Sequence record: PP968062.1
DNA length: 64,000 nt
Reading direction: 5' to 3' (one strand)
Origin: Pseudomonas phage HPP-Temi
Shown here one piece after another: positions 29,315-62,351 of the stretch. The notes below the pieces were generated by a model. That model did no database searches and had not been told where the DNA came from. It saw only the letters and a list, made by a program, of their open reading frames with translations. A program made the translations under genes and the position numbers. Position 1 is the first letter of the stretch. Each line of letters starts with the position of its first letter.

Positions 29315-29387
29315 GTTTGATTCCTACGCAGGATGGGTTTTGGTTATTACAAAATATCTTGTCAAACAAAGCTGGTATTTTCCGGAT

Positions 29388-31600: not shown

Positions 31601-31610
31601 TGACATAAAT

Positions 31611-31630: not shown

Positions 31631-31660
31631 TTTATTCACAAATTCACAAGAGTAAATAGC

Positions 31661-32062
31661 ATGAGTTGTATTGACGCACTGATTGATAACCTAAAGGGTT
31701 ACCTTCGTTTCAATCTACAACAACGTCATGGTACTACTGTTCTGGTACATGTGGCATCCCAAAACCTCTATAAAGTAAAATTCGAAGTAGCTAAGCTTTT
31801 CATTAATGCATTAGATGGCATGGAAGTTGACTTCCTTACAATGTCCGCCAATGAGATCATGGAGAAGGGTGAGCGTTATCGAGCATCCCTGTTCTTTAGT
31901 CATCATCTCCATATCGACATTAAGCAGAAAGCTGCCCCATATCCAGATGGTGATTTCCTTGGAGTGGACGTAACCAACTATTCCAAATACTTCTACGATA
32001 CAGACCCGTGTCAAGAAGGTCAGGCTATGTTGGCTAACTATCTCGAAGAACGTAAGACCTAA
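31661..32062 (+). CDS. Hypothetical protein (133 aa)
   Basis: ORF followed by hairpin GCTCCC tacg GGGAGC TTTATGTCGTC at 32069-32095. Confidence 0.5.
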   Translation: MSCIDALIDNLKGYLRFNLQQRHGTTVLVHVASQNLYKVKFEVAKLFINALDGMEVDFLTMSANEIMEKGERYRASLFFSHHLHIDIKQKAAPYPDGDFLGVDVTNYSKYFYDTDPCQEGQAMLANYLEERKT

Positions 32063-32118
32063 CATACTGCTCCCTACGGGGAGCTTTATGTCGTCACAAT
32101 CTTATAACACTAATTAAC

Positions 32119-33135
32119 ATGGAATTCATCATGTTCGGACAAGACGAAAATAATATCTGGTTAGAATACCCTAGTACTGGCTTTGAAGATATCGAAAACG
32201 CGCGTAAAGTCGCTAACAGTTTGGATAGCCTGGCATTTAAGGTACGCAGTGCCCCTGTAGCGTCGCTGGAAGCATTTTGTATTGCTTTTAATGCCATCGT
32301 AGGCGAAGACTTCAAACCCTCTAGAACGGTCTCTTTGGAGGGCTTTAGTGGGGCTCCGTCTCCTATGCATCATCTGGCTACTCGTATTACCCAACATAGT
32401 AACAACATGCACGGAGCAATTAACCTTGCTTTAGAAGATTTCAACAAAGATGCTCTAGCTAAGTTTAAAGAAATCGTTGATGGTTATCGGAAAGCCCGTG
32501 CTCAATTGGATCATGTGAAGACAGATCTTGAGCCTACTGATAGCGTCGTTAAGATCAATCACGAGCGCGTCTGGAAACTGTTTAACAAGAATAACAAATT
32601 CGTTAAACCCGAATCCATTAAAGAAGATGTGATGGATGTTGGTAAGATCGTAGGTACTATCAAAGATGCAGCTGTTAGACTTAGCTCTGGTCGCCCTGTT
32701 CAACTAGATCCCGCTAAGTACGAACTGATGATGAACACTTTCGTTGTGATTAAGGATAACTCCATTACGTTCGAGTCTCCTGAACCTCCGAAACCCAAAG
32801 ACGAATACAGTGCTGGTGACATCGCTTGGATCGTTGGTTGGAGTGTCATGTTTAACGTTGTTGGTCTTATCGGTTCTCTGATTTTCAAGAAGAAGACTGC
32901 TTCTGAAGCTGATCGGAAACGTGGCGTTAATGAAATGCTTGCTTTCATCAATACGATCAAAGGTTTCGATCGGAGTATCACTGAGATTGAAAGTGCAATC
33001 AAAGCACTACAGCAAACTGAAGAGAACAAAGAGATGTCAGCTATGCTGATCAATAGTGCTATCAAGCTTACCAAACATATCACAGACGTCACTTACGGTG
33101 CTGCTGTGTTGTTCACTAAGATTTCTAAGAGTTAA
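32119..33135 (+). CDS. Hypothetical protein with one TM segment (338 aa)
   Basis: Hydrophobic segment IAWIVGWSVMFNVVGLIGSLIF; followed by terminator GGCGAGG tttgg GCCTCGCC at 33145-33164. Confidence 0.5.
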   Translation: MEFIMFGQDENNIWLEYPSTGFEDIENARKVANSLDSLAFKVRSAPVASLEAFCIAFNAIVGEDFKPSRTVSLEGFSGAPSPMHHLATRITQHSNNMHGAINLALEDFNKDALAKFKEIVDGYRKARAQLDHVKTDLEPTDSVVKINHERVWKLFNKNNKFVKPESIKEDVMDVGKIVGTIKDAAVRLSSGRPVQLDPAKYELMMNTFVVIKDNSITFESPEPPKPKDEYSAGDIAWIVGWSVMFNVVGLIGSLIFKKKTASEADRKRGVNEMLAFINTIKGFDRSITEIESAIKALQQTEENKEMSAMLINSAIKLTKHITDVTYGAAVLFTKISKS

Positions 33136-33144
33136 AATATTAAT

Positions 33145-33164
33145 GGCGAGGTTTGGGCCTCGCC
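33145..33164 (+). terminator. Rho-independent terminator (GGCGAGG tttgg GCCTCGCC + TTATTATTT)
   Basis: GC hairpin plus T-rich tail directly after the stop of 32119..33135. Confidence 0.65.
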
Positions 33165-33360
33165 TTATTATTTCGTCATAGACTCTAAAGCAGGAATAAG
33201 GATTAAAGAGGTTTATAATTAGAATAAGGAAATACCTTCGGTATTGTTTATTACTAAATAAAACCCCCCTCCTCCGGAGGTACCTTTTCCTCGCTCTACA
33301 GATTTATTAAACACCCTAGTAAAACTTCTAAATCGATAAAAAAAAAATAAACTAAGTAAA

Positions 33361-33383
33361 GCCCTCTCCACAAGGAAGAGGGC
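33361..33383 (-). terminator. Rho-independent terminator for the minus-strand island (GCCCTCT...AGAGGGC, with a T10 tract on the minus strand)
   Basis: The A-run 33338-33360 becomes the U-tract on the minus strand. Directly downstream of the stop of 33392..33676. Confidence 0.65.
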
Positions 33384-33391
33384 AATTGAGG

Positions 33392-33676
33392 TTAAGCTGC
33401 TCTAGTAAACAAAAGATTACTAGAGTTAGATTTAATATGATAGTTCGATGATCCATCAATCCATTTAGCTTCGGAAAGCTCGTTCACAAGTCTCCCATTG
33501 CCAATGTAACCTAGGAACATCTTACCATCGTATACAGCAACTTTGATTTGCTCATTTCGTCCGTAGACTAGTGGCTTACCATTGAATGCTGTTACCTCTA
33601 GACCTGTTAGATATCCACGGTTGGGATCAGGTCTGGACCTTGTTTCAAAGACTTTCATTAGAAGTCTCCTCTGCAA
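33392..33676 (-). CDS. Hypothetical small protein (94 aa)
   Basis: ORF; hairpin AGCCCTCCTG tgcaa CAGGAGGGCT (33723-33748), then ATATGTCGTC on the gene strand, lies upstream. Confidence 0.45.
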   Translation of the reverse strand: MQRRLLMKVFETRSRPDPNRGYLTGLEVTAFNGKPLVYGRNEQIKVAVYDGKMFLGYIGNGRLVNELSEAKWIDGSSNYHIKSNSSNLLFTRAA

Positions 33677-33930
33677 GAAAGCCCACTTGGGCGAAAAGTC
33701 AAGCTTAAACTTGACGACATATAGCCCTCCTGTGCAACCAGGAGGGCTAATCTTTTCAGAACGTACGGTGTTGTTATAATACTGCTAGCGAAAATGCCCA
33801 CGAGGGGTAAGTAGCTAATCCGCAGTTCTCTTGGACGACACCTACTGACAGTGTAGTCGCGAATGCACTGTTTGGAGCCCCATTGGTTTAGCGGCCAATG
33901 GGGATTTCCTTTTTATGCCGCTTCGGACTT

Positions 33931-34350
33931 CTATTTAATAGGTTTCTTGTACTTCCATTTGTACAGTTGGTGCAGGATGAAACTCAGAACACCTAAAGCC
34001 AGTACACCTGCAATAGCCGTACCGACGATCTCTTGGGGAGTGATTGCATTGAACTCGGTACCGAAAACAACCCGAGTAATGATAATGAGCATCAAACCGA
34101 TCAGAGTGGTGACCCAGAGACGCGGGTGCAAGGAACGACTCAGACGAAGACCTGGAACAGAAACACGTTCCATCCGAGTGGACCAGGTGTGGTTACGGTA
34201 GTACATCATGTCAGTGAAGTAATCACTGTAGATGTGCAGTAGTTCCCCACGCTGATCGCCGGTACCATGAGCCAAGCCATGGTAGTAGTAAATACCACCA
34301 TCTTCTTTGTGGGTGTAAAGTTCAGCGTTGTCTTTGGTATACATCGACAT
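33931..34350 (-). CDS. Membrane protein (139 aa, two C-terminal TM helices)
   Basis: LWVTTLIGLMLIIITRVVFG and IVGTAIAGVLALGVLSFIL hydrophobic helices. Confidence 0.5.
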   Translation of the reverse strand: MSMYTKDNAELYTHKEDGGIYYYHGLAHGTGDQRGELLHIYSDYFTDMMYYRNHTWSTRMERVSVPGLRLSRSLHPRLWVTTLIGLMLIIITRVVFGTEFNAITPQEIVGTAIAGVLALGVLSFILHQLYKWKYKKPIK

Positions 34351-34355
34351 TTTTA

Positions 34356-34622
34356 TTACTCCGGCATTCCAGTGTGCACAAGAGAATTGAAACGAACATC
34401 GAACGTGTCGTACATGTCGGCAGTCAGTTCTTCGAAGACTGGACTATCCATGAAGGATTCAAGTGCACGACGAGCCGCAAGACGCTTATCACCTTCACCA
34501 TTAGCTCCGGGATAAACCGAATTACCCTCACCTGGCTTAGCAAAGCCATCAAAAACATGTGACTCACCTTCACGGTCAGTCACAGTTGCTTTAACGGAAT
34601 AGCCTGCGTAACGGAGTCCCAT
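34356..34622 (-). CDS. Hypothetical small protein (88 aa)
   Basis: ORF in the early island. Confidence 0.4.
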   Translation of the reverse strand: MGLRYAGYSVKATVTDREGESHVFDGFAKPGEGNSVYPGANGEGDKRLAARRALESFMDSPVFEELTADMYDTFDVRFNSLVHTGMPE

Positions 34623-34864
34623 TAGTCATCCCATCCTTTTACTTCGTACCATAGACAGGCACGATTGTATTCAACAATGTAACCGTCTTTACGGAGAATT
34701 TCCGCTTGACGATCATTCATCTTCCCTTCAACAGGCGTGTTCTCGTTGCTGTAATCGAAGTTTACCTCTGAGTCGCCAGCGAGCGCCCGTTGCTTAATTT
34801 TAGCATGGATAGATTCCATACCGGCTTCTTTATAAAGAAGTTCACGCAGTTCTTGTAATGTCAT
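34622..34864 (-). CDS. Hypothetical small protein (about 80 aa from MTLQELREL...); translationally coupled (ATGA overlap) to the upstream gene
   Basis: Internal Met at 34864 overlaps the stop TGA of ORF 34861..35070, so the ORF-track start at 34981 is probably too long. Confidence 0.4.
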   Translation of the reverse strand: MTLQELRELLYKEAGMESIHAKIKQRALAGDSEVNFDYSNENTPVEGKMNDRQAEILRKDGYIVEYNRACLWYEVKGWDD

Positions 34865-35070
34865 GTAACTACCCCTACAATAAAGACTCGACTGATTTCG
34901 TTGAGATAAGCGAGTACTAGAAGAATACCTGACCAGATAGCGATATTCATTGTAGTACGCTTTTCTTCCAATCCAGGACAAGTGGAATTAACTATTCGAT
35001 GACAGAAAGCACCGAATAGACCAAGTCCCATCGCGACAAAGATGATGGTAAACCAACCAAGATAGATCAT
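34861..35070 (-). CDS. Small membrane protein (69 aa)
   Basis: Hydrophobic throughout (IIFVAMGLGLFGAFCHRIV...ILLVLAYL). Confidence 0.4.
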   Translation of the reverse strand: MIYLGWFTIIFVAMGLGLFGAFCHRIVNSTCPGLEEKRTTMNIAIWSGILLVLAYLNEISRVFIVGVVT

Positions 35071-48682: not shown

Positions 48683-50368
48683 TTAACTCCTAATGTCGGA
48701 AATGATGTGTGCAAACAATACGTTCAATGGACCGACTTTATGTTGATCTATATAACCACCACCTGGTCCAACTTCTGCAATGATCTTGTCTTGCTCTTCA
48801 CGAGCTTTAGCAATATCACCCCATTTCACGATACCACGTTTAAACGTATTAGGTAATTCAGACGTGATAGGTGTAGTACCTTCACCTGGAGCTTCTGGGT
48901 TTTCTGGACGAGGGCCACTTAGGCCCAGTAGTTTCATCTTCTCGATCGGGTTACGACCAATACTAACACGGAACAACCGGAACAGACTCCAACAAGTAGT
49001 TGGATAACGGCGAATCATCTCCCAGTACTTATCATGGATACCATAGAAGTTCTTAGAGAGACTGATTTGGATGTGGTAATACTTCAGCGGATCTAATGGG
49101 AATGTTGTTCTCAGAAGAGTAGTTCCAGGATCAATCGTCATCGGTACACGTAACCGTTCGTTATTTTGGTACAGACGGATTTCAAAGAAAGAACCATCTG
49201 CAATTGCAGCTGTTCCTAATGTCTTAATAAACTCAAGCCAATACGGGTTGAATGTAAACCGACCTAGGTTCTTGAAGTCCATCAGAGATGTCAGGTCATC
49301 CTTACTCAAACACAGCAGTCCGTTAAAGAACGTGAAGCGGTGAATAGGAATCTGATCGGTATGCCAATCATCGACATCTGGATGTTGAATGTAGGGCAGC
49401 CCCATGTCACGCATCAGAAGGAACTGATGGTCAAGGGTACCACGCAGAGAAGTTGTCTTACGATCAACAGCCTGATAGTTCTGATAACGATATTCAGGAC
49501 GGAAGATCTTCGGGATCACACACTGGTTCATCAGCATCGGGTAAGATACCCGCATGTGAGTTGGCCGCTCGTAACGACAGAGATAACTGAAGTTAACAGT
49601 GTAGCCACCAGCATTGTCAGAAGACTTCTGTGGAGTATCAGGAGACGAACTGAAATCGAACCAACCTACCACGTCAACTTGTCGTTCGTAGATAGTCAGC
49701 GTCGGATGGGTATCGATAAGAGTAGCCATCTCAGTCTGCGGTTGGCACCAATGAGCTTCCATCCATTCTTGGAAGGATTGATCACTTGGCCAATTAGACT
49801 TCTGCATCGTATCGTACAGACCTTTCATAAGGCCCAGTAGAGACGGAGGAACGTTGTAGTGATAAGTCAACGACATAGTCATCTCAGCACCACCAGCAGA
49901 ACAACGAATACGTTGATCGTCTAACCAGCGTTGAGCCAGTACTACGTTAGGTGCCTGATACTCGATGTCAATCCTGAAATCAACAAAGCGTCGAATAGGA
50001 CGAATTGTAATATCGTGAGTCTCGTCTACAAATAGAGGGAAGTTCTCGTTATTGTAAACAGAGGTGGAAAGAGTAAAGTTCTCTTCCGCTATTTCTTCAT
50101 AGGACACTACAATCCTTTCTTCTGGATCGAAGTGTACTGCGTCAGCTGCATCACAGCAGTTACCGAACATACCGTCGTTCATTGGAACTGTATCGATACG
50201 ACCTGGGAGTAGAACTCTGGTTGCACCGGGTAACTGCATCATGGTAGCAATCTGTCGAACAGCATCAACAGACACCTTCCGCATTACGGTTTCGTATACG
50301 TCTGGCAAGGGGATAGTTGCATGGGGCATGGTAACCACCTCATGGTTTAAGATCATAAGATCCGGCAT
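48683..50368 (-). CDS. Hypothetical protein (561 aa), probable structural
   Basis: Long ORF. Preceded by hairpin 50372-50393 (CATAAAGCCCTGCC tttttg GGCAGGGC GATATG). Confidence 0.55.
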
Positions 50369-50406
50369 AAAGCCCTGCCTTTTTGGGCAGGGCGATATGT
50401 TGTTAC

Positions 50407-52983
50407 TTACAGAGCTTTGCGAACAGCGCCAACGATACCATCAGCCATGTCGAGTGCGTGTTGAGTTGTGAACTTGTACGCATCAACGTGAGCGTGGGAT
50501 ACCTTCAGCATTGCAGAAGCCAGATCGTCGAGATCAGCTTGCTCGTTCCAACCCGATGCACGAGAAGTAGTATCGAATTCACTGGAACCCGTACTCAGAG
50601 CACGGTTACGAGTAACATCAAGATTAATGATGTCATCGATCGCTTTGGAACCAACCGAGTCAGCGAGTTTATCAGCCAGAGCAACGTAAGCCTTAGCCAT
50701 CTTCAGCATGTTAGCCAGATCAGCTTTTGTTACATCGAAGGAAGTAACACGATCAGCTACTTTGACTTTCTTGAACACAGGAACAAGAGTGTAGCCAATA
50801 GCTTCGATACCACTGTCACGACCACGTGCACCTTTCTCGTACTCAATAGCCCAACCACCCATGAGGGCGTTAGCCATGTTTTCCGGATACTTGGCAGGTT
50901 TGATGTTCAGAGCAGTCTTAACCAGCGGACCAGTCTTCTCGTAACCACCTTCGGTAACAGCCTTGTTGATTACACCTACTACTTCTTGCAGAGCACGTTC
51001 AGAGTCTTTGATACCCTTAACAGCGATCTCGGAAGTAACACGCAGGTCTTTAGCAACAGCCTGTACCAGGTTACCATCTTTGGTAGCCAGATCAGCGGAG
51101 ATACCTTTAATGGTTTCACGACCGATGTTGGATTGACTGAGTTTGGTCAGGGCCAGGTCTACATCTTTGTTAAGAGCGTTCGCACGTTTCTTAACTTTAG
51201 TGACCAGAGGACCTTCCCACCATTTGATCAACTTCTCGTTCAGAGCACGCTTCAGGCCAGTAATACGACTAAGGAAACCACGGAAGGATTCCAGCGAGGC
51301 ATTGTAGTACTTGTCGAGATCGTCTTTACCATAGTTTTCCATGGAAGGAATGGCAGGAGCTGCATTACCGAATGCCTTAGCGAGTTCATCCAGTTTAGAC
51401 TGAGTCAGAACCAAAGTCTGAACACTGTAGCTTTCGTTAGACAGACCATACTTCAGGATCTCCATGAAGCCTTCAACAGACTCTTTCTCTCTCTGAAGAT
51501 CTTCGATGGTACGAGAAGCATCAACGGCTTCTTCTTCATCAGCGTTAGCATCTTCTTCAGCTTCGTCTGCTTCTTTTGTGGCTTCGGCTACATCGTCCTC
51601 AGTGACATCAGTGTCAACGTCTTCGATATCCAGTTCACCTTCGTCAAAGTCAGCTTCGCCATCTGCGTCGATTTCTCCATCGGGAGCGTCTTCTTCGATT
51701 TCTTGGAGGACGGGCTCTTCTTCGGTGGATTCACTCTCAGACTCATTTGGAGTCTCATCGGTAGACTCGGGTTCTTCAGCTGGTGCATCTTCAACCTCCG
51801 TCTCAGTTTCGGCAGGAGTCTCTTCTTCGATAACAGGTTCGTCCGCAGGTGTCTCTTCGACTTCTTCAGTCTCAGTAGCACTGGGTTCTTCCAGTTCAAC
51901 CGGCGGTTCTTCCGCAGTAGACTCCTCAACAGGAGTTTCGCTTTCTTCTACAACGGGCTCTTCGAGTTCAGCTTCAGTCTCTGGGACTTGTTCTTCAACC
52001 GGAGTTTCCTCAGCAGGAATATCGGTGCCAGTATCTTCCGCAACTTCCTCAGTGGTCTCTTCAGTCTCAACTACGTCGGCAGCAACTTCTTCCTCGGTAG
52101 TTTCCGCAATTGATTCCTCTACCTGAGGTTCAGATACTTCGCCAGCTTCTTCTTCCAGTTCAGGAGTAGATACACCGTCTACGGGAGCATTAGCGTCGTC
52201 AGTAGCCTCGGGTTCCAGTTCCGGCATTTCTTCCTCTTCGCCACCTAGAGTCTCACCACCTTCAACAGCAGCAGGTTCTTCATTGGTAGCTTCAGGAGCA
52301 GCGTCACCAACATCGCCTACTTCAGACAGATCTGCCGAGGAGGTTTCATCGGTAGCTTCAACCGGAGCCTCAGGAGCTTCACCTATAGTTTCAGCTTCAG
52401 CGGTTTCACCAGCGTCATCAACTGTAGTTTCAGTATTCAAGGATTCGATGTCACCAGTCTGTTCGGAAGCACCGGTTTCACCGGAGTTCTCGATATCAAC
52501 ACCGGAATCACCTTGTTCGTCAGTAGCCGGAGTATTACCGTTTACATCGACATCACCGGACTCGATAGCTTGGGCATCGGAAGCAGCTGCATCAACAGTT
52601 TCTTGTTGAGTGGCTTGGATCTGCTCAGCTTGTTCGGTGAGTTGCTGTACTTCAGCAGCCTGAGCTTGTTCAGCTTGGCTAGCCGCAGCTTCAGCAGCGG
52701 TTTCGTTAGTAGTAGCCATCGGTTCAGGAATGCCAGTAGACTCATCGTTGGTCTCGCCAACGACAGGTTCTTCTACTACTTCCAGATCGCCATCAGGTTT
52801 TACTTCTTCGGTAGGGGTAGCTTGAGCCAGTTCATCACCAGCTTCAACCACATCATTTTCCGGAGTTGCAGATGCTTCTACGTTAGTAGCATCTACAGTT
52901 TCAACAGTCTCGGGCTTGTCTTCGGTGGAGCTCTCATCGAAGTCTTCGAGACTGGTGATATATTTGTGGATGTTCTTCAACAT
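50407..52983 (-). CDS. Inner-body-like head protein, paralog family member with about 450-aa hyper-acidic E/T/A/P-rich disordered region (858 aa)
   Basis: N-terminus MLKNIHKYITSLEDF, shared with 54249..55676. Conserved core LEAY-like region (FMEILKYGLSNESYSVQ...) aligned with four neighbouring paralogs. Long acidic low-complexity N-terminal half. The + strand ORFs 50383..52113 and 51506..52126 are antisense artifacts. Confidence 0.6.
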   Translation of the reverse strand: MLKNIHKYITSLEDFDESSTEDKPETVETVDATNVEASATPENDVVEAGDELAQATPTEEVKPDGDLEVVEEPVVGETNDESTGIPEPMATTNETAAEAAASQAEQAQAAEVQQLTEQAEQIQATQQETVDAAASDAQAIESGDVDVNGNTPATDEQGDSGVDIENSGETGASEQTGDIESLNTETTVDDAGETAEAETIGEAPEAPVEATDETSSADLSEVGDVGDAAPEATNEEPAAVEGGETLGGEEEEMPELEPEATDDANAPVDGVSTPELEEEAGEVSEPQVEESIAETTEEEVAADVVETEETTEEVAEDTGTDIPAEETPVEEQVPETEAELEEPVVEESETPVEESTAEEPPVELEEPSATETEEVEETPADEPVIEEETPAETETEVEDAPAEEPESTDETPNESESESTEEEPVLQEIEEDAPDGEIDADGEADFDEGELDIEDVDTDVTEDDVAEATKEADEAEEDANADEEEAVDASRTIEDLQREKESVEGFMEILKYGLSNESYSVQTLVLTQSKLDELAKAFGNAAPAIPSMENYGKDDLDKYYNASLESFRGFLSRITGLKRALNEKLIKWWEGPLVTKVKKRANALNKDVDLALTKLSQSNIGRETIKGISADLATKDGNLVQAVAKDLRVTSEIAVKGIKDSERALQEVVGVINKAVTEGGYEKTGPLVKTALNIKPAKYPENMANALMGGWAIEYEKGARGRDSGIEAIGYTLVPVFKKVKVADRVTSFDVTKADLANMLKMAKAYVALADKLADSVGSKAIDDIINLDVTRNRALSTGSSEFDTTSRASGWNEQADLDDLASAMLKVSHAHVDAYKFTTQHALDMADGIVGAVRKAL

Positions 52984-53078: not shown

Positions 53079-54200
53079 TTACTTAATGTTGGCACTGCAT
53101 ACATTAAGAGTAGCGTTAAGATTACGCCCGGCAAGAGCCAAGACACCCAAATAAGGATTAGCAAGCCAATCAATGTAGCGCTCAAGCACTTCAACAAACT
53201 GACGTAGAACTGTTTCATCTACTCCCTCGATTTGGTCATTGGCAACCTGATTACGGATTCCTTTAACAATTGCAAGCATTGCACGGATCCGTTCCTTACG
53301 ACGATGACGAATGTTCATGCCACTAGCACGTCCAAACATTTCAGCCATCTTCTCTACTTGGCGCAATACAGAGATCTGTACAGGACCGCCAAAATGTTGG
53401 AACTTGATCACACTAGGAATCGGAAGCGGGTCACGCTCGGAGTTATCTAGCTTAACGCTGATACCCATCATTCGTTCGTAACCAGTAGCCTCTGGTGCCT
53501 TATCAAGGACGACCATTTGGTAATTACCCATTAGGTGTAGAGACTCATGGCGGTAACCGCGATGGTTGTACAGCGGATTGGATGCAACCATCTTAACAGG
53601 GTTATTCAACATGATGGTTTCAATGAGCTTCTTCAGTTCCTCAGTCGACTTGATAGTGGTAGGGATATGGAATGCAGCTCGAATGAGTTCTTCGTTGTTA
53701 TAGTCAAAGAACTGTTTACCGATTTGTTCTAGGTTCTTTAGGTTTGCAATTAAAGCCTGAACTTCGTTAATAGCCTTATACCGAACACACAGGTTCTGGA
53801 TACGTGTAGCTACTTCGAAGGTAGGTTCCTTAGAACGACGTGCAGTAGTACGAGTGAGCGTACTTAGTTCTTCTACACGGAGAAGGATCTTATCGAAGGC
53901 AAGAGACAATGCAAGACTACCATCAAACATGTCTTCCATGATTCGAGTAAGGAAAGCAATGATCTTATCCAGAATACCGACTACGGTACCTTTAAAGTCT
54001 TCACAACCTAGATCCAGTAGATGAGCTTCTCTTTGGAAAACGGGATAGTTCTCAAATCCACCAATGAGATCGAGAATCCGATTAGCAGTTGCTTCATCTT
54101 TTTCCAGTAGTGCACTAAGAGCCGCAGGAGAATCATCGAATACTACGGTTTCCTCTTGCGGTGGGATTTCCACTTCGAGAGGGATAGTTTGTGTTTCCAT
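53079..54200 (-). CDS. Hypothetical protein (373 aa), head-module
   Basis: Long ORF between paralog-family genes. Confidence 0.5.
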   Translation of the reverse strand: METQTIPLEVEIPPQEETVVFDDSPAALSALLEKDEATANRILDLIGGFENYPVFQREAHLLDLGCEDFKGTVVGILDKIIAFLTRIMEDMFDGSLALSLAFDKILLRVEELSTLTRTTARRSKEPTFEVATRIQNLCVRYKAINEVQALIANLKNLEQIGKQFFDYNNEELIRAAFHIPTTIKSTEELKKLIETIMLNNPVKMVASNPLYNHRGYRHESLHLMGNYQMVVLDKAPEATGYERMMGISVKLDNSERDPLPIPSVIKFQHFGGPVQISVLRQVEKMAEMFGRASGMNIRHRRKERIRAMLAIVKGIRNQVANDQIEGVDETVLRQFVEVLERYIDWLANPYLGVLALAGRNLNATLNVCSANIK

Positions 54201-54248
54201 ATTAACTCCTGAACATAAGACGGGACTCCGAAGAGCCCCGTCGATGTC

Positions 54249-55676
54249 TTAGTCTTTTGCCGGCGCTTTATGCATGGCGACTTCTTGCATGTAGACAGAA
54301 GCGTAGGCTGCAACAGTGCGGGTAACGTACCGAATGATTTCACGAGAACGCGGGTTGGATTCGCGAATCATTTCCAGAGCGGTTTGAGTTACTTTGCGAG
54401 CAGCTGCTTTAGAAGCTTCGTCCAGATCAGCGGAGGTCAGTTGACCTTCGATCTTCTCAACGGCTTTCTTAATAGCTTCGGCACCTTCTTTGATCTTACC
54501 GTGTTCGTCACGAGCCTTCTTCAGGATCTCGATAACGTTACGCAGATTCTTGGTGTTCTTACGCAGAGTGCTCGGATCAGATACCTTCACTTCGAATTCA
54601 GCTGGAGCTTCTTTCGCAGAAGCAGCTGGACCGATACCGTAGACGATACCATCAGCATGCAGTTCTACACGCATATTGCCAGGGAACACATCGTGGTTAG
54701 CACCATAGATATCATCCAGCGGAGCGATAGCGTGACGGAGTTTATCCGACATTTCATCGCCATCACCTTTGACAACACTGTAGCTGTTCAGCAGCTTAGC
54801 CAGGTTCTCGTAATACTTCTTAACTGCGCTCGGATAAACGTAAGCAGAGAAGTGAGCCAGACCCGAGAGAGCTTTGGTATCGTTCAGTTTGGATTTACCG
54901 TTAGCAAACACAGGACCCGGATTACTCAGGATAAAGGTCTTACCGGTACCACTCCAAACATTACCACCCGCTTCAAGAGCTTCTTCTACTTTAGCAACAG
55001 CGTTATCTGCTTTGGTGATACCAGTCATCAGATTCTCAACGCCATCAAGGATAGCGGTAACAATCTTAGCGATGATCTCTTTCAGTTTCTCGAACGCCTT
55101 GTTAGCGTACTCTTTGATATCTTCAACAGAGATCTCAGCACGCAGGATAGCAGAACGATCACCGGCATCATACGATTCGAGACCAGTGGAAATTTTATTG
55201 GTACCCAGGACACGTTCAACTTGTTTGATACCTACACGGAGGAAGGCAGCAGTTTGTTGAGAGATATCACCACGAGCTTGACGCAGGAGACCAGTATAAG
55301 CTTCCAGAGCGTGTTGTGTTTCGATCAGTTCGTCAGCACGTTGTTCCAAGATCTCTTTCTCAACATGAGCATGAGAAACAGCATCGAGAACGCCAGCGGC
55401 TTCAGTTACATCGATAGGACCTTCAACCGGAACGATCTCGACAGGGACTTCAGTCGGAACAGGTTCAACAACATCTGCACCTACGGCACCGATTTCAGGA
55501 ACCGGAGTAGGAACAGGGAGTTCTTCAGGAACAGTGGTACCAACCACCGGAGTCTCTACGACTTCAACGGGTTGGGTTTCGATAGGAGCTTCTGCAACGG
55601 CAGCAACTTCTGGAGTAACCGGAGCTTCTTGGAACTCTTCCAGGCTACTGGTATACTTATGGATGGATCGTAGCAT
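54249..55676 (-). CDS. Inner-body-like head protein, paralog family member (475 aa)
   Basis: N-terminus MLRSIHKYTSSLEEF. Core ALEAYTGLLRQARGDISQQTAAFLRVGIKQVERVLG...TGLESYD, aligned with the paralogs. Confidence 0.6.
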   Translation of the reverse strand: MLRSIHKYTSSLEEFQEAPVTPEVAAVAEAPIETQPVEVVETPVVGTTVPEELPVPTPVPEIGAVGADVVEPVPTEVPVEIVPVEGPIDVTEAAGVLDAVSHAHVEKEILEQRADELIETQHALEAYTGLLRQARGDISQQTAAFLRVGIKQVERVLGTNKISTGLESYDAGDRSAILRAEISVEDIKEYANKAFEKLKEIIAKIVTAILDGVENLMTGITKADNAVAKVEEALEAGGNVWSGTGKTFILSNPGPVFANGKSKLNDTKALSGLAHFSAYVYPSAVKKYYENLAKLLNSYSVVKGDGDEMSDKLRHAIAPLDDIYGANHDVFPGNMRVELHADGIVYGIGPAASAKEAPAEFEVKVSDPSTLRKNTKNLRNVIEILKKARDEHGKIKEGAEAIKKAVEKIEGQLTSADLDEASKAAARKVTQTALEMIRESNPRSREIIRYVTRTVAAYASVYMQEVAMHKAPAKD

Positions 55677-55736
55677 TACATTTTCCTCAGAGGAGAATCA
55701 TCGCGCGATGATGATTGTTGATAACCATAGAATTGG

Positions 55737-56897
55737 TTAAGATGCGGCACTGAGCTCCATCTCACAGACCTTGTTACGGATGTCTGTAATCGAGTTGATG
55801 CGTGCAACAATAGGACCGTAGCTAGGACGGAGTTTAGGGATGAAGTCCATCACGATGCTGGATACCTGATCCAGAGCTTCACGAGACTTCTTCCAAACGG
55901 TTTCCCCACGGCGATCTTCAAGCTTGATAAGATCCTGAGTCAGACACTTCATCTGGTCATAAATCTTAGCCTCTTCCTTAAACAGCTCACCCAGATTGTT
56001 AGTAACCTGCAAGTTGTGTTTAAGAGTGCGTTCAATTTCAAGACGGCTACGTACGTGATGTTCGTACTCATGTGGACCTTCAGTCATCTCATCGTCATGT
56101 ATAACGTAAGGACCTAGGGAGTCATGGCGGAAACGAATCAGGTAGTTACCAGGAAGGACAATGTCTTTCATGGGGTAGACGATACTGGTATGCTTACCAA
56201 TGAACTCTGAGTTTGCTTCAAAGGTCGTAATGTCACCAGTTTCTACATCATAGCTCTTGAGCGATTTGCATAGGCGATTGATGTTATCAATGACGTACTT
56301 CGGATACGTTTGCACGAAGAACTTCATTACAGCGGTTTCAGCTTTGAAATCGTCCAGGCAGAACTCAGAGCCTGCAAAAAGTTTTGTTGCTCCACTGATA
56401 GTGATCGTAGTGTCACCATTGTGGAATTCCATGCTCGTCTTCCGAGAAGGAGATTGACGAGTCAGTTTCAAGAGTTCTTCTGTTTTCTTTTCAGTACGAG
56501 TAAGACCGCTCGTTACTCGTTGAGCAAGTTGCTTAGCTTCTTCGATGATCTTTTCGATCAACTCAAGAATCTTCTTACCGATTTCTTTTAACTTATCAAC
56601 AAGAGACTCTTGCGATACAGTCGGATCAGTTAACAGGGCTTCAAGCGATACACGTTCTTTCTTACCCAGTACGTGATCAATGTGTTCAAGGCCAACAGCC
56701 ATGAACTTACGGGTTTGTAAACTAAGACCATCTCGACCAGCATCAGTCAGTTGGTCGAGATAGTTTTCAACAGCAATGTGCGCTTCAAACAGTTCTCGGA
56801 ATTCATGTTCGTGATCATTGATGATCATGTCAGGATATTCTTCTTGGGGACTGTCTTTCAACTGAGGGCGGTTAGCCGGGTTTTGACGGGTGTCCAT
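55737..56897 (-). CDS. Inner-body-like head protein, paralog family member (386 aa)
   Basis: Core AVENYLDQLTDAGRDGLSLQTRKFMAVGLEHIDHVLG...SLEAL, aligned with the paralogs. Confidence 0.55.
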   Translation of the reverse strand: MDTRQNPANRPQLKDSPQEEYPDMIINDHEHEFRELFEAHIAVENYLDQLTDAGRDGLSLQTRKFMAVGLEHIDHVLGKKERVSLEALLTDPTVSQESLVDKLKEIGKKILELIEKIIEEAKQLAQRVTSGLTRTEKKTEELLKLTRQSPSRKTSMEFHNGDTTITISGATKLFAGSEFCLDDFKAETAVMKFFVQTYPKYVIDNINRLCKSLKSYDVETGDITTFEANSEFIGKHTSIVYPMKDIVLPGNYLIRFRHDSLGPYVIHDDEMTEGPHEYEHHVRSRLEIERTLKHNLQVTNNLGELFKEEAKIYDQMKCLTQDLIKLEDRRGETVWKKSREALDQVSSIVMDFIPKLRPSYGPIVARINSITDIRNKVCEMELSAAS

Positions 56898-56940
56898 TGT
56901 ACGGTCTCATTGAGTTAAACATAGAATTTGGCAAGACAGT

Positions 56941-56971
56941 CATAAAGCCCTCCTTCGGGAGGGCTTTTATG
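56941..56971. terminator. Extended palindromic hairpin CATAAAGCCCTCC ttcg GGAGGGCTTTTATG
   Basis: 13-bp arm palindrome between paralog genes. Confidence 0.6.
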
Positions 56972-58234
56972 TTAGTACTTAGTAAGCTCGTGTTTAGCGA
57001 TAGTCAGCTTGGCGTAAACAGAGGTTACGATCTGACGTTCAACTTGAGCGATTACATCCAGCGAACGGATCTTAGTGATCAGATTGGAGATAGCACCGAA
57101 TACAGCAGGATCATCCAGTTCAACGGTCAACTTAGCGCCGAGGTCATTGGATAGTTGTTGCAGTTCAGCATTGTGGCGATTCACAGCTGCATCATCAGTC
57201 ATGATACTCAGAACGCTTTCGCATTCTTGAGCAAACTTGGTGATAGCACTGGCAGGACGCAGTTCAACTTCGATAGGACCTTCAGCATCTGTACCTTTGA
57301 TGATCTTGAAGCCGAGGTTATCCATATCCCAGGACAGACGAATACTACCCGGAAGGAAGTCTTGACCAACAGAAGCTTGAGTGACGTTAGTCATCTCAGT
57401 GTGGGTATGATCCAGAACACTTTCGATGTATTCTTGAGCACTACCTTTACCAACGTTGTTAGTAGCGAATTTCATTACCGACATCAGAGCTTTCGGTAGA
57501 CGATCGTACAGGAATACAACATAAGCTTTCTCGTTAGCAATCGTATCATAGGTGTTCTCACCATCGGCTACGATGTTACGGGTATCTTCGATCTTGACTT
57601 TGGTAGACTCTTCATCAACATCGCCCTTACGAGCTTGAATCTCTTCAGCTTTCTTACGTAGATCTTCCGAAACATTGTCCGGTACTGAACCACGCATCTT
57701 ACCGCCAGGATAAGCGGGGAATGCACGAGAAGCCAACATAAGTTGTTGAGCAGCTTGTTTGGTTTTAGCCTTAGGACCAGCCAGTTTCTGATAAACAGCC
57801 TTAGCACGTTCGATCAGTTTAGCAATGAACTCCATGATACGCTTGCCAAGGGCCTGTACACGCTCTTTAACGTCCTCAATCGACACAGTGGTAGTCTGCA
57901 AGCCGTCACGCAGAGAACACGTCTTAAACGCTTCCAGAGACAGTGCTTCGCGCTGGATACCAAGACTAGCATCGATCTGTTTCATACCAATCCGCATCAT
58001 GGCAGCGGACTGTTTGGTGATACCTTTATCACCAGCTTGTTTCAGGAGTTGAGAATATGCTTCGAGGGATTCAGCGACACCTTCGAGTTCTTCGGATTCA
58101 ACTACTTCTTGTTCTGCAACTTCATTTTGGAAGTCGGATACGTCTTCAATCTCGACCTGGATATCCTCAGCAGGTTCGATGATCGTGTCAGCGGGTTCTG
58201 TATTTACGTTACAGGGCATTTCGGTGTCTAACAT
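56972..58234 (-). CDS. Inner-body-like head protein, paralog family member (420 aa)
   Basis: Core SLEAYSQLLKQAGDKGITKQSAAMMRIGMKQIDASLG...SLEAF. Confidence 0.6.
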   Translation of the reverse strand: MLDTEMPCNVNTEPADTIIEPAEDIQVEIEDVSDFQNEVAEQEVVESEELEGVAESLEAYSQLLKQAGDKGITKQSAAMMRIGMKQIDASLGIQREALSLEAFKTCSLRDGLQTTTVSIEDVKERVQALGKRIMEFIAKLIERAKAVYQKLAGPKAKTKQAAQQLMLASRAFPAYPGGKMRGSVPDNVSEDLRKKAEEIQARKGDVDEESTKVKIEDTRNIVADGENTYDTIANEKAYVVFLYDRLPKALMSVMKFATNNVGKGSAQEYIESVLDHTHTEMTNVTQASVGQDFLPGSIRLSWDMDNLGFKIIKGTDAEGPIEVELRPASAITKFAQECESVLSIMTDDAAVNRHNAELQQLSNDLGAKLTVELDDPAVFGAISNLITKIRSLDVIAQVERQIVTSVYAKLTIAKHELTKY

Positions 58235-58272
58235 GATTGCCTCGAAAAGGGAGTTGGATTACATAGCATAAA

Positions 58273-58288
58273 GGGAGCCGAAGCTCCC
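58273..58288. terminator. Hairpin GGGAGC cgaa GCTCCC with CATAAA arm; the gene-strand downstream reads TTTATGCTATGTAATCCAACTC
   Basis: GC stem with tetraloop; the downstream 22-mer is duplicated at 61001-61023. Confidence 0.5.
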
Positions 58289-58295
58289 CATGCTT

Positions 58296-60983
58296 TTAAC
58301 GAGTGGATGCATCCATCCAGTTCATCAGACCACGGATGTAAGTGAAGTAGAACTCCCACTGCCCACCACCGGCCTTGAAGAATGTAGCTTCGCCATCGTT
58401 ACCAAACTCGGCAATCTTACTTGCCAGTTTGACACACCATTTCTGAGTGTCATCTTTGGTATACTGAGCGATGTTACGGATGACATCAGTGTACTTACCA
58501 GTGCCAGCCATGTGAGCAGGAACGAAACGACTAAACAGACCGTGTTCGTTTACGACGTTGAAGGTTTCCCACCAAGTCTTACCCATAGAAGCTTCCCAAT
58601 AACCTTCTACGTAATCGATAGCTTTAATGATTTCAGCAGCAGCTTCAGCAACCTGTTCTTGGGTCATTGCAGGGAGAGTAACTTCAGCGTAAGAGTGAGC
58701 CATACCGGAGTTGTACTTAACCGGTTTGAACTTCTCAGCATCGAAGCTCGGCATTGCGTCGTACATCTTCTGCGCTTTCTCAGGATGGGTGCGATACTCC
58801 ATCTTGATCAGATAGTCGGTATACGGTTTAACAGATGCCGCTGCACGAGTGAATACAGATGCGTTACCACGAAGGGTTTGATTCAGGTGGCCAACCGCTT
58901 TAGCAATAACCTGTTTGAAATTATCATCCAGAGACGGGTCACCTTTGAACTTAACCTCACCTTCTACGAAGCGACGATTCTTCAGCCAGTTCGGATCAGC
59001 AAAAGTCTTAGCGATCTTTTCTTTGGCGGCAAGGTAACGTTCAGGTTGTAAATCTTCTTTGCGACCATGAATCATCGCATTGAAGAAATGACCTACTTCG
59101 TCGAAGAAACCTTCGTTAGAGAATACCAGGGGGTCATGGGACTCCATACCGGCACCTTTAACTTTCAGGTTGTTCAGGCATGCTTCCAGATACATCGCTT
59201 TACCGGACGAAGTATAGGTGACAAGAGTTGTAACCATTTGCAGGTTCATTTCTTGGATCATCTTAGTGATAGTACTAACGTACAGTTGTTGCAGTTCTTG
59301 AGTGTAACGTTCATCACCACCAGTACGGGCAGCTTTGATAGCTTCCTGAGACTTCTTCTGAGCGGAATCAACAATGCGAGTAATACGATCAGACTTACCA
59401 GCATTCTGATAGAACTTCTGGAGTGCCTTCAATTGAGTTTCAATCTGACCACGTTCAAGAGCATCGAGTTCTTCGCCAACGCGATCATCAGTAGCACGCT
59501 CAAGAATCAGTGCATGCCCTTCACGGATAATCTTACCACCACCAGGCAGAGCTTTCTCAACTTTGTCTTTGTTGGATTCGAGGCGTTGTTCAATGATAGC
59601 TTTGAACTCAGCTACGCCTTCACTCGAAGCTTCCATCTTAGCCAGTTGCTGACCAAGGAAGACAACGTTGGATTGCATAGCCATCGCGGCAGATACAGCC
59701 AGATCGATTACAGCTACTTCAGCAGAGGTATCAGTACCTACGAACTTACCGTCGGCATAGAAAAAGCGAGCTTTAGAAACTTTGATCTTCTCGTTTTCGG
59801 CGTAAGCGTTACGAGGCGTCTCAGCGATTGCGGTCAATGCCTTCTGTACACGGTCTTCAGCGCGGCTACGTTCGAAATCGAAGTTCTTCAGGTACTCAAC
59901 GAGCTTAGCCCAAAGTTCTTGGATCTTCTTGTAAATAGCACCACCGATTTGTTTCATACGACCAGTGATGGTATCTTCATTGACGTCTACCGATTCCATA
60001 GCGGAACGAGGAGTAGTGTCGAAAGATTCCAGACCAGTTGCTTTAGTCTTCAGACCAAATGTACGATCGATGTGCATCAGACTCGAATGCAGTACAGCAG
60101 CCGATTGCTTGGAGATACGACCGGACTTAACGATATCGTGATAAGCTTCTAGTGCAGTCTGTGCATCATGGAGCGAATCAATACTGGAAGATACTTGTTC
60201 GATACGATCGTGCGCCAGTTGAGTGGATTCATCCATTTCAACATCAGCAGCAGTCATCGGTTCAGCAGGAGCAATTTCTTCGATCGGATGAGCTAGAGGT
60301 TCGCCTTCAATGTTTTCATTCGAGGGCTTCTCTTCTTCCGAGGTTTCGCTTTCTTGAATTTCTTCACTGGCAGCTGCTTCATGGGCTTCTACCTGCTCAT
60401 GAGCTGTGGGTTCTTCAGCAGGAGTCTCGGACTCTACTTCAGATTCAGCTTCTGTTTCAGAAACGGGGGTTTCCATTTGAGTGCTGGGAGCAGCGGGATT
60501 CTCAATTGGCTCAGGAAGAGCATTCTCTTCAACCACTTCGGTGTCCGTGGATTCTTCGCTAACTTCCTCACTAGGAGTTTCGTTAACAGCGGGTTCAGTA
60601 GCCGCACCAACATCTTCAGGAGTAATAGCAGGTTCATCGCTGTTCTCGCGTACTACTTCAGACTCGGAACGTTGAGCTTCGATATTCGGCTTCTCACCGG
60701 TACCGTCCCATAGGGGTTCATGAGCATCACCGAAGTCTTCATGACCATAGATGCCTTGACGAGTAACCCACTCACCTTTAACGAATACCCAGTCAACACC
60801 GTTAACGTGGTATACCGCACCTTCTTCCGGATTCTCGGGAAGGTCTTTGGTAGTGGTCAGTGCTTTTACAGACGTCTCTACGGATTCAACCGGAACATCA
60901 TGGGCGACACCGTCGCCAATCGATTCGTTAGAAAGAGTGGCTTTACCACCACCCAGGTGCTTTTGCAGATTATGAATAGACAT
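58296..60983 (-). CDS. Inner-body-like head protein, paralog family member (895 aa) with acidic E/T/S-rich region
   Basis: Core ALEAYHDIVKSGRISKQSAAVLHSSLMHIDRTFG...TGLESFD; acidic low-complexity N-terminal third. The + strand ORF 59067..60152 is antisense. Confidence 0.6.
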   Translation of the reverse strand: MSIHNLQKHLGGGKATLSNESIGDGVAHDVPVESVETSVKALTTTKDLPENPEEGAVYHVNGVDWVFVKGEWVTRQGIYGHEDFGDAHEPLWDGTGEKPNIEAQRSESEVVRENSDEPAITPEDVGAATEPAVNETPSEEVSEESTDTEVVEENALPEPIENPAAPSTQMETPVSETEAESEVESETPAEEPTAHEQVEAHEAAASEEIQESETSEEEKPSNENIEGEPLAHPIEEIAPAEPMTAADVEMDESTQLAHDRIEQVSSSIDSLHDAQTALEAYHDIVKSGRISKQSAAVLHSSLMHIDRTFGLKTKATGLESFDTTPRSAMESVDVNEDTITGRMKQIGGAIYKKIQELWAKLVEYLKNFDFERSRAEDRVQKALTAIAETPRNAYAENEKIKVSKARFFYADGKFVGTDTSAEVAVIDLAVSAAMAMQSNVVFLGQQLAKMEASSEGVAEFKAIIEQRLESNKDKVEKALPGGGKIIREGHALILERATDDRVGEELDALERGQIETQLKALQKFYQNAGKSDRITRIVDSAQKKSQEAIKAARTGGDERYTQELQQLYVSTITKMIQEMNLQMVTTLVTYTSSGKAMYLEACLNNLKVKGAGMESHDPLVFSNEGFFDEVGHFFNAMIHGRKEDLQPERYLAAKEKIAKTFADPNWLKNRRFVEGEVKFKGDPSLDDNFKQVIAKAVGHLNQTLRGNASVFTRAAASVKPYTDYLIKMEYRTHPEKAQKMYDAMPSFDAEKFKPVKYNSGMAHSYAEVTLPAMTQEQVAEAAAEIIKAIDYVEGYWEASMGKTWWETFNVVNEHGLFSRFVPAHMAGTGKYTDVIRNIAQYTKDDTQKWCVKLASKIAEFGNDGEATFFKAGGGQWEFYFTYIRGLMNWMDASTR

Positions 60984-61023
60984 ATCGATTCTCTGACTTG
61001 TGAATTGGATAACATAGCATAAA

Positions 61024-61043
61024 GGGGAACCGCGTGGTTCCCC
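61024..61043. terminator. Hairpin GGGGAACC gcgt GGTTCCCC with CATAAA arm; the gene-strand downstream reads TTTATGCTATGTTATCCAATTC
   Basis: Perfect 8-bp stem; flanks duplicated with the 58273-58288 element. Confidence 0.55.
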
Positions 61044-61052
61044 GATATGACG

Positions 61053-62351
61053 TCAACGCAGACGCTTCTGTTCTTCTTCCGTAGGTTTACGAAGAGGAGC
61101 TTGATAAGCCTTAAGTTCCAAGTCAGCTACAAGAGCAAGACTTGCGATCAGGCGAATCATTCCAGCGAGTGTGTTGTTATAGTCGATGATCATCCGCATG
61201 ACGTTATTGAGAATCATGGTTAGATCGTTAACAACGTTGGATACGGCTGGGCGAGCTTCATCACGCTCCTCTTCACCCGGTTTCTTACGACCTTGGCTCT
61301 GGCGGAGTTGGCCAGCTTTAACACGGATCTTCTCGGCAGATTGTTCCAGCTTCCGTAGTTGCACGGAGATCTTCTGGTCATAACCTTTACGGGATTGGAG
61401 ACGCTTAGCCAGTCCAAGCAATACACCTAGACGTTGACGGATAGCGTTTACAGGAGATACCTGAATAACATTATCACCATCGTTCATTGGCTTCTGTTCA
61501 GGGACCGTGTAATACTTAAAACGGAAGTCACGGATAGAGTTAACCATGAACTGCCAGTCTTTAAGTTTCTCGGTTTTGGTCTCGCTAGGTCCAGAGAAAT
61601 AAATGGCCTTGTTACCCTGAGTAAGTCCAGAACGGAATAACGTTGCATTAACCCGGAATCGGTCGTCTTGTTCTACTTCAATAGCACCCTTCATCCAGCG
61701 CTTGGCGTTGAAGATCTCAAACCGGATGGTAGAGTCATCAGTCCACTCTTCGTCTAGAGTAAGTGTATTGAAGGTCTTATCAATTGCAACAAGATAAGGA
61801 ATAAAGACTTTGTCATAGAAGTCGATGGTGTTCTGGGTTTGTTCCAGAGCAGGACGAATCTCTGTCGGAGAGAACTCGCCATTGATATTGAACTTCTTCG
61901 CTTTCCTCAGTTCGATCTCAGGTTTGAATGGTTTCGTCTCATTCAAGTTAGAGGCCATTTCGTAAAGCATATTGATGCGCTCTACGGTTCGATCGATACC
62001 AGCCATCAGTACTTTAGCATAGCCGTATAGATCACTGTTCGCTCTTTTAATTTCTACTTTTGTGCGTTCCCAAACCTGCCTGCTAGAATCACTAATATCC
62101 TCGGTAGAAATAACATTAGTGAAGCCGAATTTATCAACTGCATAAGCAAGCATCTCAGGGCTAGTGGTCTCGTAGTTATTCTGAATAAAAGTATCCAGAC
62201 GTTCTAGAGATTCCATCCCAGTGAAAAGCTTATCCAGTTTTTCTGCGCAAACATCGAACTCGTTGAAGTCAGCTTCAATCGAGACGGACAGATCGACGGG
62301 TGTTACCCCGTCGACTGCGTTAGGTTGGGAATGGTCAACTGAGTCAACCAT
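61053..62351 (-). CDS. Hypothetical head-module protein (432 aa)
   Basis: Long ORF upstream of the paralog array. Confidence 0.5.
   Translation of the reverse strand: MVDSVDHSQPNAVDGVTPVDLSVSIEADFNEFDVCAEKLDKLFTGMESLERLDTFIQNNYETTSPEMLAYAVDKFGFTNVISTEDISDSSRQVWERTKVEIKRANSDLYGYAKVLMAGIDRTVERINMLYEMASNLNETKPFKPEIELRKAKKFNINGEFSPTEIRPALEQTQNTIDFYDKVFIPYLVAIDKTFNTLTLDEEWTDDSTIRFEIFNAKRWMKGAIEVEQDDRFRVNATLFRSGLTQGNKAIYFSGPSETKTEKLKDWQFMVNSIRDFRFKYYTVPEQKPMNDGDNVIQVSPVNAIRQRLGVLLGLAKRLQSRKGYDQKISVQLRKLEQSAEKIRVKAGQLRQSQGRKKPGEEERDEARPAVSNVVNDLTMILNNVMRMIIDYNNTLAGMIRLIASLALVADLELKAYQAPLRKPTEEEQKRLR

Follow-up and report, generated by a model that had tools for sequence, protein, structure and literature searches.

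A stretch of 64,000 nucleotides from Pseudomonas phage HPP-Temi (record PP968062.1; the window, below) carries on its minus strand an open reading frame, ORF 50407-52983, whose product is a counterpart of the inner-body protein gp97 of phage phiKZ. The product starts with a short leader, continues with a very long hyper-acidic tract and ends in a helical, basic domain. We think it likely that the tract is an acidic pro-region, expanded and disordered, of an inner-body precursor of the phiKZ gp97 type, and that the prohead protease detaches it from the basic domain. Direct observations of several kinds carry this reading: the composition of the tract and its propensity for disorder, the orthology, the purifying selection, the conserved cleavage motifs and a charge asymmetry that runs through the whole family.

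An acidic tract kept throughout the gp97 family

A preliminary description of this DNA had pointed to some 450 hyper-acidic residues at 51500-52900, nearly devoid of basic and aromatic side chains, and the counts bear it out. Residues 30-480 (451 amino acids) contain 120 Glu and 43 Asp (36% acidic residues), 32 Pro, 2 Lys and 1 Phe, with no Arg, His, Trp or Tyr; the order of abundance is E>A>T>D>V>P and the net charge is -161. The acidic tract does lie in that interval, and only its extent needs correction, the anatomical limits being slightly wider: from residue 14 to about residue 504 (51472-52944), it measures 491 amino acids and 51.7 kDa and carries a net charge of -174. Residues 520-858 are ordinary in composition (net +5, 20 aromatic residues). 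The charge-hydropathy plot agrees with the disorder proposed at the outset: at a mean hydropathy of 0.396, where the boundary is 0.543, the tract falls well within the disordered area, and the C-terminal domain falls in the folded one. The tract has no Pfam match and no homolog in the PDB, where a sequence search returned compositional matches only, to acidic tails such as those of PELP1, ANP32B and ASF1.

Is this composition an accident of one genome? All seven orthologs compared contain an acidic region of about 470-590 amino acids with a net charge of -153 to -199 and a density of acidic residues of 0.34-0.38. These regions are mostly unalignable. In fact, their length and charge density are kept across genera whose C-terminal domains share only 26-54% identity. 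The asymmetry extends much further: among 61 family representatives with at most 50% mutual identity, each split at a conserved site, the part N-terminal to that site is acidic without exception (net -20 to -211), its charge being proportional to its length (slope -0.36 per residue, r = -0.98), and the last ~300 amino acids are basic in 95% (isoelectric point, pI, above 7.5, and 8.4-10.3 in most; mean net +11). The length of the N-terminal extension forms a continuum across the family, from ~50 to ~570 amino acids; whole proteins of the Pseudomonas-phage orthologs measure 465 amino acids in Noxifer, 704 in Psa21 and 933 in Viktualia. With the same architecture in all seven orthologs and a shorter form of it in the 61 distant representatives, the acidic tract is not a product of chance. 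The acidic region is a family trait that is expanded in the HPP-Temi ORF.

The tract is translated, and purifying selection acts on it, chiefly on composition, length and a few islands. Its reading frame is intact in all orthologs compared (seven phages). Between the HPP-Temi and PS119XW ORFs all length changes are in-frame, and the ratio of non-synonymous to synonymous substitution rates (dN/dS) for this pair is 0.156 in the tract (73% amino-acid identity) and 0.105 in the C-terminal domain (89%), values that are approximate because dS is near saturation. An untranslated region, betrayed by frameshifts in homologs, had been considered a possible undoing of the earlier description; the intact frame and the low dN/dS rule it out. 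Residues 14-447 evolve fast, though small islands in them are kept among Pseudomonas-phage orthologs (DVVEAGD..QATP, PEPMATT, DVNGN and IPAEE).

Growth by tandem duplication, suggested earlier as the origin of the tract, finds no support. In the DNA of the tract, TRF reports two tiny arrays only (22 and 49 nucleotides), and a repeat search returns only families of 18-41 nucleotides with 60-89% identity, typical of biased codon content. The self-alignment of the protein tract is no better than that of shuffled sequences (z = 0.8 for global shuffles, 2.4 for block shuffles). Recent duplication is thus detectable neither at the DNA nor at the protein level.

Two antisense ORFs lie on the plus strand opposite the acidic tract, at 50383-52113 (576 amino acids, Phe/Ser-rich) and at 51506-52126 (206 amino acids, Ser-rich). 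They are by-products of a coding strand rich in GAA, GAG and GAC, and could be mis-called as genes.

A new ortholog of phiKZ gp97

The window comes from a phiKZ-like (Chimalliviridae) Pseudomonas jumbo phage, with ~82-85% nucleotide identity to the Pawinskivirus phages PS119XW, PA1C and phiHQ; the phage collection contains none closer to it than this group. ORF 50407-52983 is the syntenic ortholog of phiKZ gp97 (PHIKZ097), PhiPA3 gp102, 201phi2-1 gp159, Phabio gp143 and PS119XW gp104. It stands between a gp96-like ORF (53079-54200) and a gp98-like one (48683-50368), and the same gp96-gp97-gp98 order is found in PS119XW (gp103-105), phiKZ (096-098), PhiPA3 (101-103) and 201phi2-1 (158-161). It ends an inner-body gene cluster whose six upstream ORFs (53079-62351) all match PF12699, the Pfam family of phiKZ-like internal head proteins. 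When the C-terminal ~370 amino acids are compared by tblastn, identity is 82% with PS119XW, 54% with PhiPA3 (E 6e-120), 38% with 201phi2-1 (1e-58) and 26.5% with phiKZ (2e-19), and the ORF has the leader MxxxIHKYxxSLE and the long acidic N-region of the gp97 orthologs. Synteny and homology thus confirm the early impression of an inner-body protein. From phiKZ gp97 through its orthologs to the present protein, the position in the cluster, the leader, the acidic region of 470-590 amino acids, a conserved acidic motif and the homologous C-terminal domain are all the same. The nearest relative has the same architecture and differs in sequence only (~82% nucleotide identity over the alignable part of the gene, and ~85% in another 25-kb stretch of the window).

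What is known of phiKZ gp97 gives this orthology its meaning. It is one of six inner-body proteins present at high copy, with 100-200 molecules per virion (PMC13282480), and is proteolysed in packaging (bioRxiv 10.1101/2024.03.24.586471; PMC10449902). When tagged at its C-terminus it is packaged, ejected with the DNA and remains with the phage nucleus, and the gene is non-essential, since knock-outs and deletions of orf97 are viable (bioRxiv 10.1101/2022.09.17.508391). By its conserved motifs, the product of ORF 50407-52983 would likewise be a high-copy virion protein, cut by a protease and ejected as its C-terminal part. It is a new ortholog in a family known for two decades, whose acidic region has stood in public sequences since 2002. 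In the relevant literature searched, which did not cover the primary proteomics papers, the word "acidic" is not used for the N-region of gp97.

Conserved cleavage motifs bracket the tract

In phiKZ, the head protease gp175 cleaves its substrates after S/A/G-x-E (PMC9026906, PMC5694885), and motifs of this type flank the tract on both sides. On its N-terminal side the leader ends in SLE-13, the Glu13 of which is invariant in all seven orthologs. The family leader resembles M..L(K)xYLSxE, and 62 of the 64 representatives have in it an S/A/G-x-E whose Glu falls between positions 9 and 25, mostly between 10 and 17. The leader of the HPP-Temi protein recurs in phiKZ gp93, gp94, gp95 and gp97; in gp93 it reads MSLLKMLDKLSLE, followed by S, and was reported to be cut between Glu13 and Ser14 (PMC11297242). 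On the C-terminal side the sites SVE-504, SME-549 and SLE-565 open the helical domain. Across 44 aligned sequences, four residues of the C-terminal domain, and no others, are invariant: E504, E549, Y560 and E565. The family's best-conserved protease motifs, SLE-13 and these three sites, thus enclose the acidic tract. Later proteomics identified 20 semi-tryptic cleavages in gp93, gp95 and gp97, with the LSxE motif enriched, and so narrowed the cleavage motif to LSxE (PMC10449902).

Cleavage at SLE-565 would reverse the net charge of the protein: by computation, a precursor of 91.6 kDa with net charge -169 and pI 4.05 becomes a chain of 293 amino acids and 31.6 kDa with net charge +8 and pI 9.4. 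For phiKZ the computed precursor masses are 35.9 kDa (gp90) and 87.8 kDa (gp97), and cutting gp97 at the homologous SLE-532 leaves 30.7 kDa, a reduction of 65.0%. These values fit the figures of Thomas et al. (2012), who reportedly saw precursors of 36-88 kDa reduced by 35-65% to mature proteins of 26-31 kDa. A gene for a gp175-type protease was not found within the 64-kb window. This is as expected from the map of the closest relatives, PA1C and phiHQ, in which a gp175 homolog (58.8% identity) lies ~85 kb from the gp97-like gene.

A second family-wide element lies inside the acidic region itself, at residues 448-475. Its consensus, E-L-D-I-(P/E)-D-V-D-x-x-v-T-E-D-D-V-x-E-A, is shared by short and long gp97-family members of many jumbo phages. 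It has 14 invariant columns among the seven orthologs, its strict core occurs in 28 of the 65 representatives against a chance rate of 0.4%, and its dN/dS relative to PS119XW is 0.08. It is absent from the gp93/94/95-type paralogs. We think that this motif is probably a docking element for assembly. Because residues 14-447 lie between two family-wide elements, the leader and this motif, the expansion can be located there. The motif also sits in the longest stretch of the tract that is free of protease motifs (residues 422-474).

Table 1. Coordinates of the gp97-like gene, its parts and a paralogous acidic stretch in the window.
Feature	Position	Strand	Description	Basis
gp97-like gene	50407..52983	-	858-amino-acid precursor, ATG start, 91.6 kDa, pI 4.05, net -169	ORF, tblastn, synteny, masses
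N-terminal leader MLKNIHKYITSLE	52945..52983	-	Residues 1-13, ends in S-x-E; candidate capsid-targeting leader, predicted cut after Glu13	Motif conservation
Expanded hyper-acidic tract, predicted disordered	51643..52944	-	Residues 14-447, 434 amino acids, 45.4 kDa, net -151	Composition, alignment, dN/dS
Family-wide acidic motif EGELDIEDVDTDVTEDDVAEATKEADEA / EGELDIEDVDTDVTEDDVAEA	51559..51642	-	Residues 448-475, ~50 amino acids upstream of site A and the helical domain	Alignment
Site A, SVE-504	51472..51480	-	S/A/G-x-E at start of helical domain	57/62 representatives conform, Glu invariant
Site B, SME-549	51337..51345	-	S/A/G-x-E	62/62 representatives conform, Glu invariant
Site C, SLE-565	51289..51297	-	S/A/G-x-E, putative maturation cut	59/62 representatives conform, Glu invariant
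Predicted mature inner-body domain	50410..51288	-	Residues 566-858, 293 amino acids, 31.6 kDa, net +8, pI 9.4; helical bundle, jumbo-phage internal-head-protein fold	AF2, Foldseek
Shorter acidic stretch in paralog ORF 58296-60983	60189..60701	-	171 amino acids, residues ~95-265, 52 D+E against 5 K+R, net -47	Composition

A proposed course for the precursor

To explain these results we propose the following sequence of events. The precursor, built of a 13-residue leader ending in SLE, a polyanion of ~490 residues and a helical domain of ~350 residues that opens with three S/A/G-x-E sites, would be incorporated into the prohead. There a gp175-type protease would cut the leader site together with SVE-504, SME-549 and SLE-565, and probably some of the tract's own 23 internal sites as well. 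Cleavage would free the polyanion and turn the highly acidic precursor into the basic ~31.6-kDa protein, which may then remain with the DNA as inner-body material and be ejected into the host. The tract would thus act at the precursor and prohead stage only. It could mask the basic domain and keep it soluble, by analogy with the acidic tails of histone chaperones, and it could fill the volume of the prohead as a self-repelling polyelectrolyte whose fragments are displaced by the packaging of DNA. Complete removal as a propeptide had been the reservation attached to the first description of the tract; the conserved flanking sites and the published proteolysis of gp97 make such a removal likely in HPP-Temi too.

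Several points weigh against this proposal. The roles in charge masking and space filling are ones that we infer, and processing in HPP-Temi is predicted from conserved motifs. The exact cut positions proposed for gp97 follow from mass arithmetic and the reported sizes of precursors and mature proteins. Acidic N-regions are not always discarded, given that the acidic N-terminal fragment of phiKZ gp93 is kept in the mature capsid, on the capsid wall (PMC11297242). Any role in assembly must be dispensable or redundant, since phiKZ orf97 can be deleted. Lastly, the tract is not enriched in the protease motif. When five non-redundant orthologs are pooled (tract 51472-52944 in the window protein) and compared with shuffles of 25-amino-acid blocks, [SAG]xE is depleted, with 95 sites observed for 124.9 expected (z = -3.5). 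Neither of the control motifs of like composition, [SAG]xxE and Ex[SAG], departs from expectation, and [TVP]xE, an analog that is not cleavable, is in excess (z = +5.4). The depletion is only suggestive, because seven motifs were tested post hoc and the sequences are related; it may reflect selection against internal cleavage or a preferred T/V/P-x-E periodicity. A propeptide made for shredding would be expected to be enriched in protease motifs, and the tract is mildly depleted in them. The 23 internal S/A/G-x-E sites would nevertheless, if all were used, leave no fragment longer than 53 amino acids.

An essential prohead scaffold in the manner of T4 gp22 was also considered, and is unlikely in view of the viable orf97 deletions reported for the phiKZ ortholog.

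Other fates of the polyanion

Could the polyanion instead stay in the mature head, still attached or as large fragments? There it might serve as a DNA mimic, as an electrostatic modulator or as a co-ejected decoy that, for example, titrates DNA-binding defence proteins of the host within the early infection vesicle. The preliminary description had thought along these lines (DNA mimic, counter-ion or ejected decoy), and the bracketing protease motifs together with the published proteolysis of gp97 now make such a fate unlikely. Some findings favour the idea. Length and charge are kept under purifying selection, and the under-representation of [SAG]xE in the tract, with controls at expectation, fits a release as large pieces. 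The T4 head retains small acidic internal peptides. The paralog gp93 retains its acidic N-terminal fragment in the capsid (PMC11297242). A retained tract might even have escaped notice: the predicted digestion of the window protein with trypsin yields a single peptide of 463 amino acids from residues 8-470, which would be too large for standard trypsin-based virion proteomics, so that here absence of evidence is not evidence of absence. Against retention stand the invariant cleavage sites, which lie between the tract and the domain whose ejection is known, and the published ejection data, which all come from C-terminal tags. Some 50 kDa in 100-200 copies (PMC13282480) would add ~17,000-35,000 negative charges to densely packed DNA. 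Known mimics such as Ocr and ArdA are rigid and folded, with patterned carboxylates, whereas the tract, disordered by prediction, is without a Pfam match and drifts quickly in sequence (71% amino-acid identity, against 89% in the C-terminal domain). Finally, cryo-electron microscopy of the phiKZ capsid assigned fragments of gp93 and gp162 and none of gp97 (PMC11297242).

No likelier, in our estimate, is a variant in which the polyanion is excised and yet persists in the filled capsid as fragments of tens of kDa, which are co-ejected into the early infection vesicle and act there as a decoy or modulate DNA ejection. The depletion of protease motifs would then be selection for large fragments, which would escape trypsin proteomics in the same way.

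Still less probable is a capsid anchor, in which part of the N-region stays bound to the inside of the capsid shell and serves as a minor capsid or cement component, like gp93(14-84) and the N-terminal fragment of gp162, and the C-terminal domain is freed. The conserved islands could be that part, or the ELDI(P)DVD..TEDDV motif with its strand-like alternation of Val and Glu. The leader is shared with gp93, the layout of an acidic N-region followed by a helical domain is the same, and the motif inside the tract is strongly constrained. The high-resolution structure of the phiKZ capsid, by contrast, showed gp93 and gp162 fragments and not gp97 (PMC11297242), the motif is absent from gp93/94/95, and an anchor needs no disordered expansion of 434 amino acids.

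A functionless low-complexity expansion, a neutral spacer driven by slippage and tolerated because it is cut off anyway, would suit the fast divergence with its many indels, the non-essential gene of phiKZ and an N-extension of 50 to 570 amino acids in the family (the whole protein has 465 in Noxifer and 704 in Psa21), but it is very improbable given a dN/dS well below 1, DNA and protein free of tandem repeats and hence of any sign of recent slippage, an acidic length and density maintained across distant genera, and a near-total exclusion of Lys, Arg and aromatic residues, which implies selection on composition.

The basic domain and its PF12699 relatives

An AF2 model of residues 490-858, built on 44 family sequences, has a pLDDT of 90.5 and a pTM of 0.82; a model from the single sequence (pLDDT 40) was unusable, and the alignment-based one was used instead. 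Foldseek found 102 matches to it in BFVD at E<=1e-3, and the best 50 of these 102 are all jumbo-phage proteins, the named ones being virion or internal head proteins. Fold and sequence searches of the PDB gave no solved homolog, the best Foldseek match (SmhA, E = 0.53) not being significant. An exhaustive phmmer search with the same residues collected 65 cluster representatives, one of them 89% identical. A word-indexed protein search with the C-terminal domain had returned no matches, and having missed these 65 relatives its negatives are not to be trusted for the gp97 family.

The relation to PF12699 (phiKZ_IP, gathering score 27 bits) is more distant. Neither the full protein nor its C-terminal domain alone matches this family, even at E<=10, whereas the six neighbouring ORFs match it at 32-225 bits, and a shallow hhalign comparison of seven orthologs with six paralogs was not significant. 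The gap is bridged by two members of the gp97 family, P0015 (found by the query at E 2e-37) and P0047 (at 2e-9), which match PF12699 at 56.8 and 68.6 bits, respectively. A hidden Markov model made from the 65 representatives scores 30.3 bits on the window paralog 54249-55676, 26.5 bits on 56972-58234 and ~34 bits on phiKZ gp93 and gp94, in all cases with collinear alignments. From intermediates, profile and fold together, the C-terminal domain is therefore a divergent branch of the internal-head-protein superfamily.

The PF12699 proteins (phiKZ gp93, gp95 and gp162; ORFs 53079-62351) resemble the gp97 type in their leader and its cleavage site near Glu13, their acidic N-region and helical domain, their conserved G/S/A-L-E sites and their predicted fold. 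They are processed by gp175 and packaged at high copy, and most are ejected. The gp97 type differs in a C-terminal domain that falls below the Pfam threshold and is linked to them only through intermediates, family profile and fold, in an acidic region that is 4-10 times longer, and in a motif of its own that is absent from gp93/94/95.

Two of the paralogs in the window deserve mention. ORF 58296-60983, rightly described before as a paralog with a shorter acidic stretch, is a distant one that matches PF12699. It is a composite protein of 895 amino acids on the minus strand, with PHROG 22140 at residues 37-86, the 171-residue acidic linker, PF12699 at 249-589 and PHROG 28891 at 618-894. It is without the MLxxIHKY..SLE leader of ORFs 50407-52983 and 54249-55676. 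The latter, a PF12699 paralog also on the minus strand, has a leader (MLRSIHKYTSSLEEF) almost identical to that of the gp97-like gene, followed by an acidic stretch of ~100 amino acids rich in Pro, Val and Glu. This near-identity suggests that the leader module was exchanged or conserved between paralogs.

Significance and comparison with known systems

As the product is a new ortholog of a long-known protein, the window itself adds little. The family view adds, modestly, a family-wide charge switch, invariant glutamates at the P1 position, a conserved acidic motif and a likely blind spot of proteomics. Throughout the gp97 family, an acidic precursor would become a basic protein of ~300 amino acids once cut at three sites with invariant glutamates. 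In Pseudomonas phages the acidic part is inflated four- to ten-fold, with Lys, Arg and aromatic residues excluded. At the 100-200 copies per virion known for phiKZ, the pro-region would contribute some 5-10 MDa and 17,000-35,000 negative charges to each prohead, on a par with a considerable share of the inner body. What becomes of the pro-region bears on which component acts as scaffold or core in the proheads of giant phages, and on the cargo delivered to the early infection vesicle.

Among known systems, phage T4 also offers parallels. Its internal proteins with a capsid-targeting sequence also have a short leader that is removed after Glu by a related prohead protease, and its core and scaffold proteins gp22, gp67 and gp68 are cut by gp21 into pieces that for the most part exit the head (PMC5694885, PMC7411985). 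No counterpart of a scaffold has been confirmed in giant phages (PMC5694885). The likeness to T4 has clear limits: the T4 leaders, of 10-20 residues, have no long polyanion behind them, sequence homology is absent, and T4 gp22 is indispensable whereas phiKZ orf97 is dispensable.

A very high carboxylate density is what the tract shares with T7 Ocr, with ArdA and with the tails of the histone chaperones ANP32, ASF1 and nucleoplasmin. The tract has no homology to Ocr and ArdA, which imitate B-DNA with a rigid fold. With its predicted disorder, its many prolines (32 in 451 residues), no Pfam or PDB homolog and poor conservation, the tract does not belong to their class. Its likeness to the chaperone tails is a functional analogy only, that of an acidic tail shielding a basic, DNA-associated partner.

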